NCBI GenBank assembly: GCA_038205015.1
Contig: JBBRCK010000005.1
Coordinates: 1,656-65,655, forward strand
Source: Candidatus Levyibacteriota bacterium
GTDB taxonomy: Bacteria; Patescibacteriota; Microgenomatia; Levybacterales; UBA12049
Length of the DNA: 64,000 nucleotides
Reading direction: 5' to 3'
The translations under genes and the position numbers were made by a program. Below are positions 13,825 to 39,183 of this stretch, piece by piece. Within the stretch, counting starts at the first letter, position 1, and the number at the start of each line of letters is the position of its first letter. Below the pieces are notes generated by a model. That model saw nothing but the letters and a program-made list of their open reading frames with translations. It ran no database searches and was not told the origin of the DNA.

Positions 13825-13916
13825 TGAGCCCCGATAAGATTTTAATCACAATTATAGGAATAGCTTCAATAATTTTTACTTACTGGTATTTTTTGGCAAA
13901 AAAACAAGATGAATAA
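13824..13916 (+). CDS. small single-TM ORF (~30 aa) between csoR and copA
   Basis: [30 protein letters not shown]; the start overlaps the csoR stop (TAATG) and the stop overlaps the copA start (gATGAATAA). Coordinates approximate, +/-1. Confidence 0.3.
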
Positions 13917-16128
13917 AAATACTTATTTTATAAAAGGCATGCATTGTGCATCTTGCGTTAATGTTTTGGAAAGATCGTTGAAAAAAGTCAACGGAGTCGA
14001 AGATGCAAACGTGAATTTGGCCACTGAAAAAGCCACTGTTACTTTTAATCCTCAAATTGTAAATGAAAAAAAACTGGCTTCAACTGTTGCAAGCGTTGGG
14101 TACGAAATGGTTTTAGAAGATAGAAATATGCATCATGACCATATGAAGGAAGAAAAGAAAGTGGAATTACGAATACTTAAAAAGAAAGTAATTTTAAGTC
14201 TTTTCCTGGGAAGTTTAATTATTTGGGGAAGTTTTCCCGGGCTATCAAAAACTGCGCCTTTAATCTTACAAAACTTCTTTATCCAATTTCTTTTGGCAAT
14301 TCCTGTTCAATTCTGGGCAGGCTTAGAATTTTATAAAGCAGCTATTCCAGCCCTACGGCATAGAAATGCCAATATGGACACTCTAGTTGCATTGGGAACT
14401 TCTGTTGCTTTTATTTATTCATCTGTAGTTATATTTTTTCCTCGATTATTTAACTCAATTGGCGTTGTTGCTATGCCTTACTTTGATATTTCTACTATTA
14501 TAATAGGCTTAATTTTATTGGGCAGATATTTAGAAGCAAAAGCCAAAGCCGGAACATCAGAAGCAATTAAAAAATTAATGGGTTTATCGCCAAAAACTGC
14601 AAGAGTTATAAGAAATGGAAAAGAAATTGATATCTCGATAGAAGAAGTTTTAATCGGCGATATTATAAGAGTAAGACCCGGGGAGAAAATTCCGGTTGAC
14701 GGAACAGTAACTGAGGGAAATTCATCAGTTGATGAAAGCATGATTACGGGAGAAAGTATTCCGGTTGAAAAAATAAAAGGAAACGTTGTAATTGGGGCAA
14801 CAGTAAATAAATCGGGAACATTTTTATATAAAGCAACAAAAGTAGGAAGCGCAACCATGCTTTCTCAAATTATCAAACTTGTTCAAGATGCTCAAGGAAG
14901 TAAAGCTCCAATTCAGCGAATCGCAGATTTAATTTCTTCATATTTTGTTCCAATAGTCATTATGCTTTCTTTATTAACTTTTGTTATTTGGTATGATTTT
15001 GGACCAGGCTTAATCTTTTCTCTTTTAAGTATGGTTTCTGTATTAATTATTGCTTGCCCTTGTGCAATGGGACTTGCCACTCCAACTGCCGTTATGGTTG
15101 GTACAGGAAAGGGTGCGCAAAATGGAATTTTAATAAAAGAGGCAAAGAGTTTAGAAATTGCCCATAAAATCAACACCGTTGTTTTTGATAAAACAGGAAC
15201 CTTAACCAATGGCAAACCTCTGGTAACGGATGTAATTTCAAAAGATAAAAATCAAAAGTTATTACAACTGGCTGCATCACTTGAAAAAGTTTCCGAACAT
15301 CCTTTAGCTTTTGCAATTTTACAAAAAGCTCAGGAAGAACAACTTAACTTAGATAAGGTAGATCAATTCCACGCTGTTTCCGGATTTGGAGTTGAGGGGA
15401 TTATAAATAAAGAGAGAGTATTCTTCGGCAACAGAAAACTAATGGAGAAAGAAAAAATAAATATAGAAAGTCTTGAAAATAATATTAATAACTTAGAAAA
15501 TCAGGGAAAAACAGTAATGATTTTAAGCATTAATAAATCTGCCCAAGGCTTAATTGCTGTTTCGGATACTATTAAAGACAGCGCGAAAGAAGGAGTTTCA
15601 AATCTCTTAAAAATGGGAATTGAAGTGGTAATGATAACAGGGGATAACAAAAAAACCGCCCAAGCAATTGCTAAAACATTAGGAATAAAAAGAGTGTTAG
15701 CGGAAGTTTTGCCACAAGATAAAGAAGCGGAAATTAAAAAAATTCAAGCTGAGGGAAAAGTTGTCGCAATGGTGGGTGATGGAATAAATGACGCACCTGC
15801 ACTAGCAACTTCGGATATCGGAATTGCAATGGGTTCTGGAACCGATGTTGCAATAGAATCTTCGGATATTACACTAATCAATAAAGACTTACGATCTGTG
15901 TCTTGGGCAATTAATTTATCTAAAAAAACAATGACAACAATAAAATTAAACCTTTTCTGGGCTTTTGGCTATAATATAATATTAATACCCGTTGCAATGG
16001 GAGTTTTATACCCATTTCTACATGTGCTTTTAAATCCAATATTTGCGTCGGCAGCAATGGCACTAAGTTCAATTTCTGTAGTATCTAATTCTTTAAGTTT
16101 AAAAAGAGCAAATATTATAAAAATTTAA
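13909..16128 (+). CDS. copA: copper-translocating P1B-type ATPase
   Basis: N-terminal HMA domain [13 protein letters not shown] motif ([11 protein letters not shown]), DKTGTLT phosphorylation site, [10 protein letters not shown]; 739 aa. Confidence 0.9.
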
Positions 16129-16129
16129 T

Positions 16130-17161
16130 ATGAATAATTTAATTACTATTTTTTTAACCGGTCTTATAACAGGGGGACTAACTTGCATGGCTGTACAGGG
16201 TGGGCTTCTGGCGGCAACTCTTGCACAAAGAGAAGAAGAAAAATTAAAAAATAATCTTAAAAAAGGCGGAAACGCTTTACCGATTTTATCTTTTTTAATT
16301 GCAAAATTAACAGCCTACACAATTTTTGGATTTTTATTGGGTCTTCTTGGATCATTTTTTACTCTCTCTATTAGTGCAAAAGTAATTATGCAAATTGCTG
16401 TTGTAATATTTATGCTGGGAACCGCTTTTAATATTTTAGAGATTCATCCCATTTTTAGATATTTTATAATTCAGCCTCCTAAATTTCTAACTAGACTTGT
16501 AAGAAAACAATCAAAAAGCCAGGATATTTTTGCACCGGCAATACTGGGCGCATTCACTGTTTTTATTCCTTGTGGAACTACGCAGGCAATGATGGCATTA
16601 GCGATAGCCTCAGGCAAGCCAATTTCCGGAGCCTTGATTCTTTTTGCCTTTATTCTAGGAACTTCACCTTTATTTTTTATCTTAGGATATTTTGCAACCA
16701 CGCTTGGAGAAATATTTCAAAAACAATTTATGAGAATTGCAGCAGTTGCCTTAATTATTCTTTCAATTTTTAACTTAAATAATGCGCTTGCATTAACGGG
16801 ATTTAATTTAAATCTAGGTGGAACAGTAAAAAACATTTATTGCACGTTTGCGGTTTGCGATAATAATAACGTTGCTCTAAAAAATAGCGATCCAATTACT
16901 GAAGCAACAATTATCATCGGAAGCACTTCTTACCAACCAAATCAAATTACCGTAAAAAGAGGAGCAAATATTACGCTTCATTTGGTAAATAAAAATGGCT
17001 CAAGCTGCATTCAGGCGTTTACAATTCCTTCTTTAAATATACAAAAAGTTGTTCCACTAGGAAGCTCCGACACTCTTACCTTTACCGCGCCACAAACAGT
17101 AGGCGAATTACCATTTATGTGCTCTATGGGAATGTATCGAGGAGTTATAAAAGTAATATAA
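16130..17161 (+). CDS. membrane protein with a C-terminal Cys/Met-rich cupredoxin-like (Cu-binding) domain; cop operon accessory
   Basis: ~6 TM helices in residues 1-220, then a soluble ~110-aa domain ending LPFMCSMGMYRGVIKVI (C-x-M-x-M, reminiscent of a cupredoxin/CopC-type C-terminal strand). Translationally adjacent to copA and copZ. Confidence 0.4.
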   Translation: MNNLITIFLTGLITGGLTCMAVQGGLLAATLAQREEEKLKNNLKKGGNALPILSFLIAKLTAYTIFGFLLGLLGSFFTLSISAKVIMQIAVVIFMLGTAFNILEIHPIFRYFIIQPPKFLTRLVRKQSKSQDIFAPAILGAFTVFIPCGTTQAMMALAIASGKPISGALILFAFILGTSPLFFILGYFATTLGEIFQKQFMRIAAVALIILSIFNLNNALALTGFNLNLGGTVKNIYCTFAVCDNNNVALKNSDPITEATIIIGSTSYQPNQITVKRGANITLHLVNKNGSSCIQAFTIPSLNIQKVVPLGSSDTLTFTAPQTVGELPFMCSMGMYRGVIKVI

Positions 17162-23090: not shown

Positions 23091-23921
23091 ATGAAAATTG
23101 ATGGAAAAGAGATTGCTAGCAATATCCTCAAGGATTTAAAAATAAGAGTTGAAAAACTTAAAGAAAAAAAAATTACACCCCACCTTTATATAATTACATT
23201 TGGAAAAAATCCTCAAACTGAAAGCTACCTTCGGCAAAAGCTTTCAAAAGCAGAAATAATCGGAGCAAAAATAACCATCAAAAGATTTTCTCTTAATACT
23301 TCTGCAAGTTCTATTTATAAATTTATAGAGGAACTGAATAAAGATAAAAAAATCCACGGAATAATTATCCAAAGACCACTTATCAAAAGCTTAGATGAAG
23401 AAAAAACTTCCTTGAGTATAAACTTGCCAAAAGACGTTGACGGATTTCATCCTCATTCCAAGTTTTCCGTACCGGTTGCAATTGCGGTAATAAAACTTAT
23501 TGAATCAACTATTGAAAACGAGAGTATCTTGGAATTTTTAAAATCTAAAAAAATTGTGGTAATAGGGAAGGGAACTACTGCAGGAAAACCAGTAATTAAT
23601 CTTTTAGAAAAATACAAGATTAAATTTAAAAAAGTGGATAGTAAAACAAAGGATAAAAATAAAATATTCAAACTGACTGACATTATAATTTCTGCTGTTG
23701 GAAAAAATATTATTAACAAAGAGAATATTAAAAAAGGAGTTGTTCTAATTGGAATCGGAATGCATACTGGTAGCGACGGAGAATTAAAAGGGGATTATAA
23801 TCAGGAAGAAATTGCAAATAAGGTCTCATTTTATACACCAACACCAGGTGGAGTTGGACCGGTAAATGTAGCAATGCTGATGAAAAACTTAGTTGAAGCC
23901 ACTGAAAATCAAAATCTATGA
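23091..23921 (+). CDS. folD: bifunctional methylenetetrahydrofolate dehydrogenase/methenyl-THF cyclohydrolase
   Basis: MKIDGKEIASNILKDLK..., the YLRQKLSKAEIIG region, NAD(P) Rossmann GKGTTAGKP, C-terminal PTPGGVGPVNVAML. Confidence 0.8.
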   Translation: MKIDGKEIASNILKDLKIRVEKLKEKKITPHLYIITFGKNPQTESYLRQKLSKAEIIGAKITIKRFSLNTSASSIYKFIEELNKDKKIHGIIIQRPLIKSLDEEKTSLSINLPKDVDGFHPHSKFSVPVAIAVIKLIESTIENESILEFLKSKKIVVIGKGTTAGKPVINLLEKYKIKFKKVDSKTKDKNKIFKLTDIIISAVGKNIINKENIKKGVVLIGIGMHTGSDGELKGDYNQEEIANKVSFYTPTPGGVGPVNVAMLMKNLVEATENQNL

Positions 23922-24394
23922 TAAAGCTTGCCACAATGGTTTATCTTCTTAAGGGAAATAAAGTTTTATTCTTGGAAAGAAGAAAGGAAAATGACAAGGT
24001 CCATAAACAAGGAATGCATATTCCAATGGGAGGAAAAGTTGAAAAAGGAGAATCTTTAGAAGATTGCATAAAACGTGAAGCGTTAGAAGAATCCGGAATA
24101 AAAGTTAACTCAGTCGATTTAAAAGGAGTTATATATTTTAGGGACTTTGGAGAAAAAAACGCAGATTGGATTGATTACATTTATGCCTCTGATGACTTCA
24201 AAGGTGAACCAAGAGACGGAAATGAAGGAAGTTTTTTGTGGGTTAAGCTAGAAGATTTTAAAAAACTTAATTTATATGAAGGAGATAAGATATTTATAGA
24301 TTATATTTTTAATAAGAAATATAAATTTTTTGTGGTTGAGTTTCTATATAAAAAATATAAACTTCTAGACCACAAGTTATTAAAAGCTTTTTAA
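23918..24394 (+). CDS. NUDIX hydrolase
   Basis: Nudix box GGKVEKGESLEDCIKREALEESGI (Gx5Ex7REUxEExGU). Confidence 0.7.
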   Translation: MIKLATMVYLLKGNKVLFLERRKENDKVHKQGMHIPMGGKVEKGESLEDCIKREALEESGIKVNSVDLKGVIYFRDFGEKNADWIDYIYASDDFKGEPRDGNEGSFLWVKLEDFKKLNLYEGDKIFIDYIFNKKYKFFVVEFLYKKYKLLDHKLLKAF

Positions 24395-24446
24395 ATTCTT
24401 GACAAACTCCCACAATCTGCTAATAATTAATTAGTTATATTTATTT

Positions 24447-24824
24447 ATGGCTTACAAATCATTTAATCAAAGATTTCCTACATTCAAATGGGTATTATTA
24501 CTGGCAGTAGTTTTTGCGCTCCCTCTTACAATGTGGTCATTAAATAATGTCTCCACAAATACACAGCAACATGCAGCATATACTTGTAGTTCGCTTGGAG
24601 GGGCGTGTACGTCTAATACTATTTGCAAAATGGAAGGTTATGGAACAATATCTGGAGGCGTTTGTACAACAGGAAAGGTTTGTTGCAGATTTACAGCACC
24701 AAAGCTACCTACATGCGTATCTAGAGGCGGAAGCTGTGTAATACCTACAATTTGTCATACGGAAGGAAGAGTAGTATTATCGGGAACATCATGTAGTGGA
24801 GTTACTGTTTGCTGCAAATTCTAA
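24447..24824 (+). CDS. secreted/membrane-anchored Cys-rich protein with two tandem six-cysteine (beta-defensin-like spacing) modules
   Basis: N-terminal hydrophobic signal/anchor (FKWVLLLAVVFALPLTMWSL), then two ~37-aa repeats each C-x6-C-x5-C-x12-C-x5-CC (CSSLGGACTSNTICKMEGYGTISGGVCTTGKVCC / CVSRGGSCVIPTICHTEGRVVLSGTSCSGVTVCC). Confidence 0.6.
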   Translation: MAYKSFNQRFPTFKWVLLLAVVFALPLTMWSLNNVSTNTQQHAAYTCSSLGGACTSNTICKMEGYGTISGGVCTTGKVCCRFTAPKLPTCVSRGGSCVIPTICHTEGRVVLSGTSCSGVTVCCKF

Positions 24825-24861
24825 TCCATTCTTGACATAAACCCATTATTTAACTAGGATA

Positions 24862-25653
24862 TTGTATATGAAAAACTTCTACGAACAATTTAAAACCCCA
24901 CTAGTAACAATTGCTGTTATCTTTGTCGCGCTTTTTCTTTACACAAGATTCGCCGGACCCATTCCTTTTTCTGTAAATAGCGTACAAACTACTAAAACAG
25001 ATTTGTTTTCTGCAAACGGGGAAGGAAAAGCAACAGCTGTACCTGACCAAGCAACAATAGATGCTGGTGTCACAGAAACAGCCACAACGGTTTCCGATGC
25101 ACAAAATAAAGTTAACACTAAGGCTCAAAAAATTATTAACGCTGCAAAAACATTAGGATTAACCGATAAGGACATTAAAACAACTAATTATTCTGTGAAT
25201 CCTAATTATGGAACAGGAGAAATTATGCCGATGATGTATCCACAAAGAGGAGGAAATAATATCACAGGATATACCGCAACTCAAAACCTTGAAATAAATG
25301 TAAAAGATTTGGCAAACGTCAATAAAGTAATTGATACGGCTACTCAAAATGGAGCAAATCTTGTGGGAGGTACCAATTTTACATTTAGTGATTCCTTACA
25401 AACTAAACTTGAAAACCAAGCAAGACAAACGGCAATTAACCAGGCAAAACAAAAAGCTCAAGGATTAGCTAGCGCTGCGGGGCTTAGGCTTGGAAGAGTT
25501 GTTAATGTAGTTGAAAATTCAAGTGGCTTTCCGAGACCGATGATGCTTCAGGCAGATAGTTTAGCGAAAACAGCCGAATCAGCTCCTACCAATGTTACTC
25601 CGGGAGAAAATACGGTAACAATAAACGTTGTCATCTACTACGAAACGTATTAA
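24862..25653 (+). CDS. SIMPL-domain (DUF541, YggE-like) periplasmic/secreted protein with N-terminal TM anchor
   Basis: ITGYTATQNLEINVKDLANVNKVIDTA...GANLVGG.NFTFSD...AKQKAQGLASAAGLRLGRVVNVVE, a typical SIMPL pattern. Confidence 0.65.
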   Translation: MYMKNFYEQFKTPLVTIAVIFVALFLYTRFAGPIPFSVNSVQTTKTDLFSANGEGKATAVPDQATIDAGVTETATTVSDAQNKVNTKAQKIINAAKTLGLTDKDIKTTNYSVNPNYGTGEIMPMMYPQRGGNNITGYTATQNLEINVKDLANVNKVIDTATQNGANLVGGTNFTFSDSLQTKLENQARQTAINQAKQKAQGLASAAGLRLGRVVNVVENSSGFPRPMMLQADSLAKTAESAPTNVTPGENTVTINVVIYYETY

Positions 25654-25658
25654 TCTTT

Positions 25659-26507
25659 TTATTTTAAAAACGGGGCGAATATTTTATTATACTTATCAAT
25701 CATATCAAGTCTTTTATTTACTTCGTCATCTCCACCCTTTATTCTTACTTTCGGCTCACCTTGACCACAATAAAGAGCAACTGCTTTAAATAATGCTTGT
25801 TCATAACTTTTACCTTCGGACATTTGCTTTCTAATATTTCTGTCAAGCATCAATGCTGCTGTTGCAGTATCTTCTCTATCACCTCTATGTCTTTCGTGGA
25901 ATGCTTTTGTATATTCCAGTCCATTAAAAGCGTGCTGCCTAAAATCATTACTCCATCCTATATCTATTTGATATGACCCTTGGACTCTTGAGCTGGCGCG
26001 TGACTTATCAAATGCTCTTGAATTTGGATCTGAGCCTCCACTTTCTTTTTCCTGAGTTACAAATAAAACAATCCATGAAACTTTAGGGTATTTTTTATGA
26101 GCTGCAAGATAAAAGGGTAAATTGCCATGTAAATCAGCTAATATATTATTGTTAAATTTATCGGAGTTTTTTGCAAATTTATAAATAGCATTTGCTTCAT
26201 CTTTAACTTTTTGTGTTTGTTGTTCCTTGTGTGACAACGGCTTCTCCGAAGCAACAGGCGAAGAAGTAGGCGAAGCAACAGGCGAAGGAATAGTTATAGT
26301 TAAATCGTCTGATTTAGGCTGATTATAATCTAAAACCAAAGGATAAAATTCTTCACGCGCAGTTGGAACAAAAATACTAGGATCTCTTCCTTCAGCTGGA
26401 GCAGTTGCTGTTAAAACTGTTCCAGCAACAAGAAAAGACGCGGCAAGTCGCGTTCTTCTGTCTTTAATAATTGTTCTAGCTAAATCTAAGCTTCTTAATT
26501 TTTCCAT
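25659..26507 (-). CDS. secreted hypothetical protein (start at the internal Met MEKLRSLDLARTIIKDRRTRLAASFLVAG...)
   Basis: RR-containing signal peptide, a Pro/Ser-rich linker (PSPVASPTSSPVASEKP), and a C-terminal ~180-aa domain with an E-S-G-G-S...QGSYQI segment faintly reminiscent of lysozyme-like/transglycosylase folds. The long-ORF N-terminus overlaps the next gene and looks non-coding. Confidence 0.45.
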   Translation of the reverse strand: MEKLRSLDLARTIIKDRRTRLAASFLVAGTVLTATAPAEGRDPSIFVPTAREEFYPLVLDYNQPKSDDLTITIPSPVASPTSSPVASEKPLSHKEQQTQKVKDEANAIYKFAKNSDKFNNNILADLHGNLPFYLAAHKKYPKVSWIVLFVTQEKESGGSDPNSRAFDKSRASSRVQGSYQIDIGWSNDFRQHAFNGLEYTKAFHERHRGDREDTATAALMLDRNIRKQMSEGKSYEQALFKAVALYCGQGEPKVRIKGGDDEVNKRLDMIDKYNKIFAPFLK

Positions 26508-39086: not shown

Positions 39087-39100
39087 AGTTTTAGGCTCTG

Positions 39101-39183
39101 GGCAAGTGGCGGAATGGTATACGCGGTAGTCTCAAAAACTACTAGCCGCAAGGCTGTGAGGGTTCGACTCCCTCTTTGCCCAC
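39101..39183 (+). tRNA. tRNA-Leu (anticodon CAA), long variable arm
   Basis: GGGCAAG acceptor / CTTTGCCC, D-arm GCGGAATGGTATACGC, anticodon stem GTAGT-CTCAAAA-ACTAC (CAA), variable arm TAGCCGCAAGGCTGTGA, T-arm GAGGGTTCGACTCCCTC; CCA not encoded. Coordinates +/-2. Confidence 0.8.

Follow-up and report, generated by a model that had tools for sequence, protein, structure and literature searches.

Defensins of the trans type (alpha, beta and big defensins) have been reviewed as having arisen and evolved only in animals, and the three disulfides of beta-defensins connect C1-C5, C2-C4 and C3-C6 (PMC7203481). In bacteria, the defensins known to date belong to the cis type (PMC11561630), with the laterosporulins as one structural exception (PMC6989792). 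The latter are class IId bacteriocins of Brevibacillus with six cysteines and a disulfide connectivity reported as homologous to the beta-defensin one (PMC6989792, PMC5396196), and they are the only earlier bacterial case of a trans-defensin-like protein that we found in the literature. Here we describe a gene at positions 24447-24824 of a 64,000-nucleotide stretch of contig JBBRCK010000005.1 (GenBank assembly GCA_038205015.1) from a Candidatus Levyibacteriota bacterium; this whole stretch is referred to as the window. The gene encodes a small protein, the window protein, with an export leader and two tandem six-cysteine modules, each of which is predicted to adopt the beta-defensin fold.

The best match to the window protein in both sequence and structure is AvBD11 (Gallinacin-11; PDB 6qeu, 6qet), an avian double beta-defensin (PMC9138766) that shares with it the two-domain organisation and the linker length. 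AvBD11 differs in being an animal egg-white protein and in the length of the loops that follow C2, and the window protein resembles it chiefly in loop 1 and the linker, at a level that is not strictly significant. Of the two, AvBD11 would also be the more cationic. Beta and big defensins in general (PF00711, PF13841, PF14862) resemble the window modules in framework and predicted fold, but the modules match none of these Pfam families, their loops are x5/x12/x5 rather than the usual x4/x9/x6 of beta-defensins, and the G-x-C4 motif is not conserved in the window family. Further differences are the bacterial host, the low or absent charge of the relatives and the arrangement of the modules, which are either tandem units or parts of larger surface proteins. 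The tick carboxypeptidase inhibitor (Inhibitor_I68; PDB 1zlh chain B) consists, like the window protein, of two tandem beta-defensin-like domains, but it is an arthropod protein that gives no significant sequence match, and we found no evidence in the window protein or its context for an inhibitory C-terminal tail or a target peptidase. Bacterial cis-defensins (xanthusin, actifensin and actinomycesin, of the CS-alpha-beta type) are small secreted six-cysteine peptides as well (PMC11561630, PMC6989792), but the cysteine-stabilised helix motif of the cis type, a helical CxxxC that pairs with CxC in the last strand, is absent from the window protein.

Two six-cysteine modules in a small exported protein

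The gene is an intact open reading frame (ORF) on the + strand, with its ATG at 24447 and its stop codon at 24822-24824, and encodes 125 residues. The identical protein (P0001) is recorded in NCBI and Logan assemblies. Its features are listed below; P0009, L009 and L292 denote relatives that are described further on.

24447..24824, + strand: complete ORF with leader and two six-cysteine modules, stop included
24447..24539, + strand: Sec-type signal or anchor (residues 1-31), read from the sequence; near-invariant in 8 proteins with differing cargo
24540..24575, + strand: conserved spacer LNNVSTNTQQHA (residues 32-43); T37, Q41 and A43 invariant among leader-family relatives
24585..24686, + strand: module 1, Cys47-Cys80, CSSLGGACTSNTICKMEGYGTISGGVCTTGKVCC
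24687..24713, + strand: inter-module linker RFTAPKLPT, nine residues; CC-x9-C length as in AvBD11
24714..24815, + strand: module 2, Cys90-Cys123, CVSRGGSCVIPTICHTEGRVVLSGTSCSGVTVCC, then C-terminal KF; conserved in P0009 and L009, with the CCKF end also present in the single-module gene of L292

The cysteines occupy positions 47, 54, 60, 73, 79 and 80 in module 1 and 90, 97, 103, 116, 122 and 123 in module 2, so that both modules read exactly C-x6-C-x5-C-x12-C-x5-CC. Across the 64 kb of the window, a relaxed six-cysteine pattern applied in each of the six frames matched these two modules only. When aligned without gaps, the modules are identical at 18/37 positions in protein and 61/120 in DNA, and TRF detected no DNA tandem repeat at the modules; their duplication is therefore old. 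The mature protein would have a mass of about 8.5 kDa, a net charge of +5, an isoelectric point (pI) of 8.7 and a grand average of hydropathy (GRAVY) of +0.43. Both modules lie within the approximate trans-defensin spacing range C-x4-8-C-x3-5-C-x9-13-C-x4-7-CC, as do those of P0009 and L009; the L292 module has x13 in loop 3. The G-x-C2 motif and the threonine or serine before C1, both typical of beta-defensins, are present in most modules.

An exhaustive phmmer search of 1.84 billion representatives with the mature part of the protein returned one true homologue (P0009; E 2.6e-5, 43% identity), a protein of 95 residues with two modules of the same spacing, encoded on a 66%-GC Joint Genome Institute (JGI) metagenome contig. 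The framework, used as a DNA pattern to scan the contigs of one genome per species, picked out 47 stretches, of which the sole real one (L009) encodes a 478-residue protein in a metagenome-assembled genome of an uncultured Candidatus Saccharibacteria. Against a profile built without it, the L009 protein scored E 4.7e-8; for chance pattern matches the value was above 0.1. This protein consists of an N-terminal membrane anchor, other cysteine-rich stretches, an Asn-rich linker and then three modules, of which the first two are perfect and the last is degenerate. The fourth member is encoded by a partial gene at L292 1-219, upstream of the P0004 gene discussed below; it comprises the leader, a Pro/Thr linker and one window-type module with x13 in loop 3 and a CCKF end, and scored 49.3 bits against the module profile. 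The module thus also exists as a single copy.

In a gap-free alignment of the three two-module proteins (window, P0009 and L009), 12/12 cysteines and the spacing within modules are invariant. Judged from the sequences, this agreement with two independent proteins, together with the fourth member at 49 bits, is more than chance, and the gene at 24447-24824, which specifies a small exported protein, is real. The module family is real, unannotated and, at the search sensitivity used, very rare, with four proteins found. The original prediction had described two tandem modules of identical spacing, which the ORF translation reproduces exactly, in a protein secreted behind an N-terminal signal or anchor, for which residues 1-31 carry the Sec-type features given below. 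It had also proposed a search for related copies and named loss of the cysteine framework in homologues as the outcome that would speak against it; the search yielded window-type modules in P0009, L009 and the upstream gene of L292, and the framework is retained in all three.

Other searches added nothing to the family. Word-indexed protein searches with the mature domain and with a 4-module profile recovered nothing but the query itself, and a two-protein alignment search of genome, viral and metagenome contigs found no relatives. The framework pattern scan gave no real match among the at least 120 matches listed for metagenome contigs, nor among the at least 120 listed for viral contigs, and tblastn against plasmids and phages returned nothing related. 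No family was found for the window protein in Pfam or NCBIfam, or in PHROGs at E up to 1. At 90% identity, the protein falls in a cluster with one member. Two further phmmer matches (P0007 and P0008) were rejected as long eukaryote-like repeat proteins that matched through repetition and composition, and matches to SH3_5, PIP49_N and DUF4229 were discarded as sub-threshold noise.

The loci of the two multi-module relatives show some additional features. At L009 (3697-5133), the N-terminal region of the protein is cysteine-rich (e.g., CGEGEFCDGGRSCESGTKRCDNGRCGKSC), the Asn-rich linker is of low complexity, the third module has five cysteines with C3 lost, and the C-terminus is a helical cysteine-containing domain. 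The two genes that follow encode products with N-terminal hydrophobic segments, one of which weakly matches cohesin. On the P0009 contig (L002), a signal-peptide-like mini-ORF, MRYAKSILAMAIVAAFSAG, lies 5' of P0009 in a different frame (478-600); this frame continues with two TGA codons and then a plausible linker, GMTVDARDDDPSAQASTDTA. This arrangement may stem from faulty assembly, from decay of the gene or from recoding. A gene for a DUF4157/eCIS_core protein lies convergent to and downstream of P0009.

Predicted fold and relation to beta-defensins

Module 1 was modelled by AlphaFold2 from a 4-row alignment, consisting of both window modules and both P0009 modules, with a predicted local distance difference test score (pLDDT) of 82.7; four of the five models reached 78-83. 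The model comprises strand b1 (10-13), a short helix (15-21), b2 (24-27) and b3 (36-39), and its three antiparallel strands superimpose on solved beta-defensins. When the model was searched against 48,164 chains, one fold dominated the match list, which is given here in rank order with the score of each match.

1. AvBD11 C-domain, 3.5
2. Human beta-defensin 6, 3.4
3. Crocodile CpoBD13, 3.4
4. Tick carboxypeptidase inhibitor, 3.3
5. Human beta-defensin 2 (hBD2), 3.2
6. Platypus DLP-1, 3.0
7. Crotamine, 2.9
8. Human beta-defensin 1 (hBD1), 2.9
9. Oyster big defensin, 2.8
10. Unrelated Thermus protein, 2.3
11. DLP-2, 2.3

Among these, crotamine, the DLPs and the tick inhibitor have the beta-defensin fold as well. 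Matches with this fold superimposed with a root-mean-square deviation of 1.9-2.9 A over 32-37 of the 42 residues, at 21-32% identity. Foldseek E-values for the same model were not significant, and the template modelling (TM) score exceeded 0.45 only for hBD2 and AvBD3. Each module is predicted to adopt a three-stranded, three-disulfide beta-defensin (trans-defensin) fold. The check suggested beforehand, structure prediction followed by fold comparison, therefore came out in favour of the beta-defensin fold and not of an unrelated one, and the claimed closeness to the beta-defensin framework holds up in the spacing and, for the structural reading, at the level of prediction and conservation.

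Comparison by sequence gave signals of uneven strength. AvBD11 was the top PDB match for the window protein as a single sequence (E 0.12) and for a three-protein profile (E 0.019), for which the sole other match was serum albumin at E=6. The AvBD11 alignment (6qeu) continues through the linker, with CC-x9-C in both proteins. When each module was scored against the AvBD11 C-domain, a reference chosen post hoc, 6/7 modules lay above shuffled controls (z 2.9-5.0) in which the non-cysteine residues were shuffled and the cysteine positions fixed. A Pfam scan of the individual modules gave only three sub-threshold matches, including CLIP_1 (E 0.094) and Inhibitor_I68 (PF10468; E 0.084 in 1/6 modules), the latter below any threshold for membership of that family. 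Both are beta-defensin-related folds, and these weak signals point in the same direction.

Several results weigh against the assignment of the beta-defensin fold. Neither the protein nor any of 6 modules of the family matched Defensin_beta (PF00711 / PF13841) in Pfam at E up to 10, and against a beta-defensin hidden Markov model (HMM) that we built from 11 sequences the modules scored 0-5 bits. With this HMM, module 2 lay above the Cys-fixed shuffles (z 2.2-2.9), but the other six of the seven, including module 1, did not, and hhalign gave a probability of 4.6% that covered loop 1 only. Modelled from a single sequence, the two modules came out poorly (pLDDT 59.8) and gave no Foldseek match. 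The fold prediction itself rests on an alignment of four rows by a program that was trained on beta-defensins and may pattern-match cysteine spacing, and a short b1-b2 helix like that of the model is not known from classic beta-defensins. A rival explanation, which cuts across the functional readings discussed below, is that the modules share the cysteine spacing only, being another disulfide-rich fold or a generic rigid spacer, with AlphaFold2 having reproduced a memorised template. The lack of significant profile-sequence or profile-profile similarity, the near-equal scores of the shuffles for 6/7 modules, the very shallow alignment and the poor single-sequence model all speak for it. It accounts less well for the agreement of 4/5 models, for the dominance of one fold among the chains searched, for the G-x-C2 and T/S residues of most modules, and for the scores against the AvBD11 C-domain, and we consider it unlikely.

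Whereas framework and predicted fold are beta-defensin-like, homology of the window modules to beta-defensins is not demonstrated by these sequence comparisons. As profile comparison failed to place the window protein among the beta-defensins and its disulfide connectivity is a presumed one, we do not assign it to that family. We class it instead as a new bacterial variant of a beta-defensin-type fold, as predicted by the model.

A stronger resemblance to beta-defensins was identified in a second gene of the same slot in a sister genome, P0004 (L292 222-806). Following the leader, residues 44-85 of P0004 form a six-cysteine unit, C-x6-C-x4-C-x10-C-x7-CC, in which a proline follows C3 and C4 lies within G-T-C. 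The best PDB match is hBD2, aligned end-to-end (E 0.011, 19.3 bits) with 16/38 positions identical, 10 of these non-cysteine. Of 24,736 Pfam families it matched PF00711 Defensin_beta alone, at E 0.041 and with 14.3 bits where the cutoff is 21. Against the beta-defensin HMM the unit scored 21.9 bits (Cys-fixed shuffles -0.9 +/- 3.3, 0/300 reaching this value), and its Smith-Waterman score against hBD2 was 69 (shuffles 28.9 +/- 7.0, 0/500 reaching it), overall some 6-7 standard deviations above the controls. P0004 may therefore be a better candidate than the window modules for true homology with animal beta-defensins. The unit was also tried as a member of the window module family and rejected: with the module HMM it scored -7.5 bits and did not exceed its Cys-fixed shuffles, so that no relation to the window modules is detectable beyond the cysteines. 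The lineage therefore carries at least two kinds of beta-defensin-like unit, of which the P0004 kind resembles vertebrate beta-defensins in sequence well beyond the framework. That both kinds are true homologues of animal beta or big defensins nevertheless seems to us quite improbable.

Leader, slot and neighbouring genes

Residues 1-31 have the composition required for Sec export, namely a charged n-region followed by an h-region of about 12-20 residues. The n-region, MAYKSFNQRFPTFK, has a charge of +3 (K4, R9 and K14), and the h-region, WVLLLAVVFALPLTMW, comprises 16 hydrophobic residues (15-30). Candidate cleavage sites for signal peptidase I (SPase I), read from the sequence, are possible after S31, following (V/M)WS (VWS in the relatives), or after T37 (VST). 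The conserved QHA|A at the border between leader and cargo does not fit the -3/-1 rule. Similarity to the leader-family relatives stops at residue 43, and the conservation of the family ends abruptly at QHA(A). In five metagenome proteins (P0002-P0006) only residues 1-43 are common, at 43-84% identity, and the remainder is fully divergent. No signal family in NCBIfam or Pfam matched the leader. It may act as a dedicated signal, for export or for processing, or else offer recombination a handle by which cargo is exchanged.

The leader consensus of about 43 residues, MAYKSFNQRFPxFKWVLL...PLTVWSxNNVSTNxQQHA, is near-invariant in at least eight proteins whose cargo is unrelated. Copies lie at 24447-24575 of the window, at L170 531-660, at L171 from 427, from 1094 and from 1595, and at L292 1-60 and 222-350.

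Immediately 5' of the gene are folD and a NUDIX hydrolase gene, and immediately 3' is a SIMPL/DUF541 gene, followed by a conserved unannotated gene. The features around the ORF are as follows.

23918..24394, + strand: NUDIX hydrolase, 5' flank of the slot; absent at that position in L170 and L171
24399..24427, + strand: sigma-70-like promoter TTGACA-17-AATAAT, about 20 nt 5' of the ATG; consensus match only
24868..25653, + strand: SIMPL/DUF541, 3' flank; syntenic, with 66% identity to L170 and 69% to L292

The promoter-like site matches the consensus at 11/12 positions and was the top-scoring site in a scan of 24000-25800. In L170 the order is folD, a leader gene, SIMPL and the same downstream gene, with unrelated cargo. 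L171 carries three leader genes in tandem after folD, and L292 at least two before SIMPL; the slot can therefore hold at least two leader genes. The presence of the NUDIX gene in the window and its absence from L170 and L171 indicate that the slot has gained or lost genes. In DNA, identity to the relatives' loci is 74-80% for the leader, more than the 67-70% of the flanking housekeeping genes. Homology is lost across the cargo and returns at SIMPL, with 77% for the leader against 68% for SIMPL. With its conserved leader and vanishing cargo homology, the slot thus represents a fast-changing set of small exported proteins. The three tandem genes of L171 (427-2140) differ in their cysteine-rich N-terminal part, have a beta-rich C-terminal part and gave no Pfam match.

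The window has a low GC content of 34%, and GC at third codon positions (GC3) is 0.22 in the cargo, compared with 0.22-0.30 in neighbouring genes. Since the cargo is genome-like in GC3, the gene appears long resident, and not to have come in recently from a donor of different composition. We considered a recent horizontal origin of the cargo, for which composition gives no support.

The neighbours in the window are housekeeping genes, encoding gyrB, a copper P-type ATPase, a DsbD_2/CcdA-cupredoxin fusion, HhH-GPD, HAD, H+-PPase and gyrA. No immunity gene, ABC exporter gene or leader-peptidase gene was found near the gene in the neighbourhood annotation. Positions 13909-17161 encode the copper P-type ATPase (HMA, E1-E2), followed by a fusion of unusual architecture between a DsbD_2/CcdA-type membrane thiol-disulfide protein and a cupredoxin-like domain. 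This DsbD_2/CcdA-type protein is encoded 8 kb upstream of the gene, and the fusion may be relevant to the handling of redox or copper outside the cytoplasm and hence to the formation of disulfides. The gene 3' of SIMPL (25659-26507, - strand) is 54% identical to L170 1877-2206 (- strand) and gave no Pfam match; its product has a C-terminal E-S-G ... GxYQI motif that we take, as a candidate assignment, to be reminiscent of lytic transglycosylases. The sole Rfam match in the window is an 83-nt tRNA at 39100-39182 (57 bits), whose length suggests a long variable arm.

Possible functions

We hypothesise that the window protein is an exported, disulfide-stapled protein that acts extracellularly as a target-binding effector on the envelope of another cell, and we give this explanation as a whole slightly better than even standing. 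The leader would carry the protein across the membrane, and by the positive-inside rule the modules would be placed outside, whether or not the leader is cleaved. The 12 cysteines would oxidise outside the cell, presumably as C1-C5, C2-C4 and C3-C6 in each module, to give a compact, protease-resistant, mildly cationic product of about 8.5 kDa, its modules joined by 9 residues as in AvBD11. The producer would display such a protein or release it, and the role would not be a housekeeping one; a comparison might be drawn with the small cysteine-rich effectors that eukaryotic symbionts secrete; binding to its target could lead to adhesion or to damage. We favour an effector because of the turnover of cargo and the tandem arrays in the slot, the occurrence of the module in the anchored L009 protein and the lack of conservation of charge. 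The case for binding as such is drawn from context, and this counts against it.

An alternative is that the protein is a true antimicrobial defensin or bacteriocin. Through membrane disruption or binding of lipid II, the modes of action of beta-defensins, AvBD11 and big defensins, it would kill bacteria that are competitors or hosts, or make them permeable. A predicted beta-defensin-like fold, with two domains and CC-x9-C as in the antibacterial AvBD11 (PMC9138766), is what such a molecule would have, and the laterosporulins provide a precedent for bacteriocins with beta-defensin-like connectivity (PMC6989792). The small size of the mature protein, its net charge of +5 and pI of 8.7, its relative hydrophobicity (GRAVY of +0.43) and the promoter-like site of its own fit as well, and loci of antagonism typically hold hypervariable arrays of small peptides that are secreted. 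The positive charge, however, is not conserved (0 in P0009 and +1 for each L009 module, versus +4 to +11 in hBD1-3), the L009 modules are internal to a large anchored protein, and the gene lies among housekeeping neighbours that are conserved in relatives, with no immunity, ABC exporter or leader-peptidase gene nearby. We regard killing activity as possible but doubtful. The protein might also be an enzyme inhibitor built on the beta-defensin fold: the tick carboxypeptidase inhibitor consists of two tandem beta-defensin-like domains, and sea-anemone alpha-amylase inhibitors share the fold. An inhibitor could shield the cell or the host interface from hydrolases, but the Inhibitor_I68 match is far below threshold and confined to 1/6 modules, the KF that alone follows the last cysteine leaves little free C-terminal tail, the module is internal in L009 and the context suggests no target enzyme, all of which makes this role very unlikely. 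As for a spurious or decaying ORF without function, the cluster at 90% identity has one member, and the called P0009 ORF lacks a signal peptide, which also tells against an exported effector, and seems to have no start that bears one. Against this stand the conservation of leader and modules as protein across independent assemblies with 12/12 cysteines invariant, the promoter-like site, the genome-like GC3 and an intact ORF that fills the intergenic slot, and we consider absence of function extremely improbable.

The result would surprise defensin specialists, but its basis is a structure prediction and a handful of sequences. Should the predicted fold prove wrong, a rare unannotated family of cysteine-rich modules remains, which would be of modest interest. 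If the fold holds, the choice between convergence, common origin and gene transfer becomes directly testable, and a new disulfide-stapled scaffold would have come from poorly studied small-genome bacteria. Should the window and P0004-type modules be true homologues of animal defensins, the trans-defensin superfamily would not be confined to animals: either its root would be bacterial, or ultra-small symbiotic bacteria would have captured it from animals. Behind a lineage-specific export leader, it would now serve such bacteria as a fast-diversifying effector arsenal against other cells. The hypervariable slot of leader plus cargo may encode molecules that these bacteria use on their partners.
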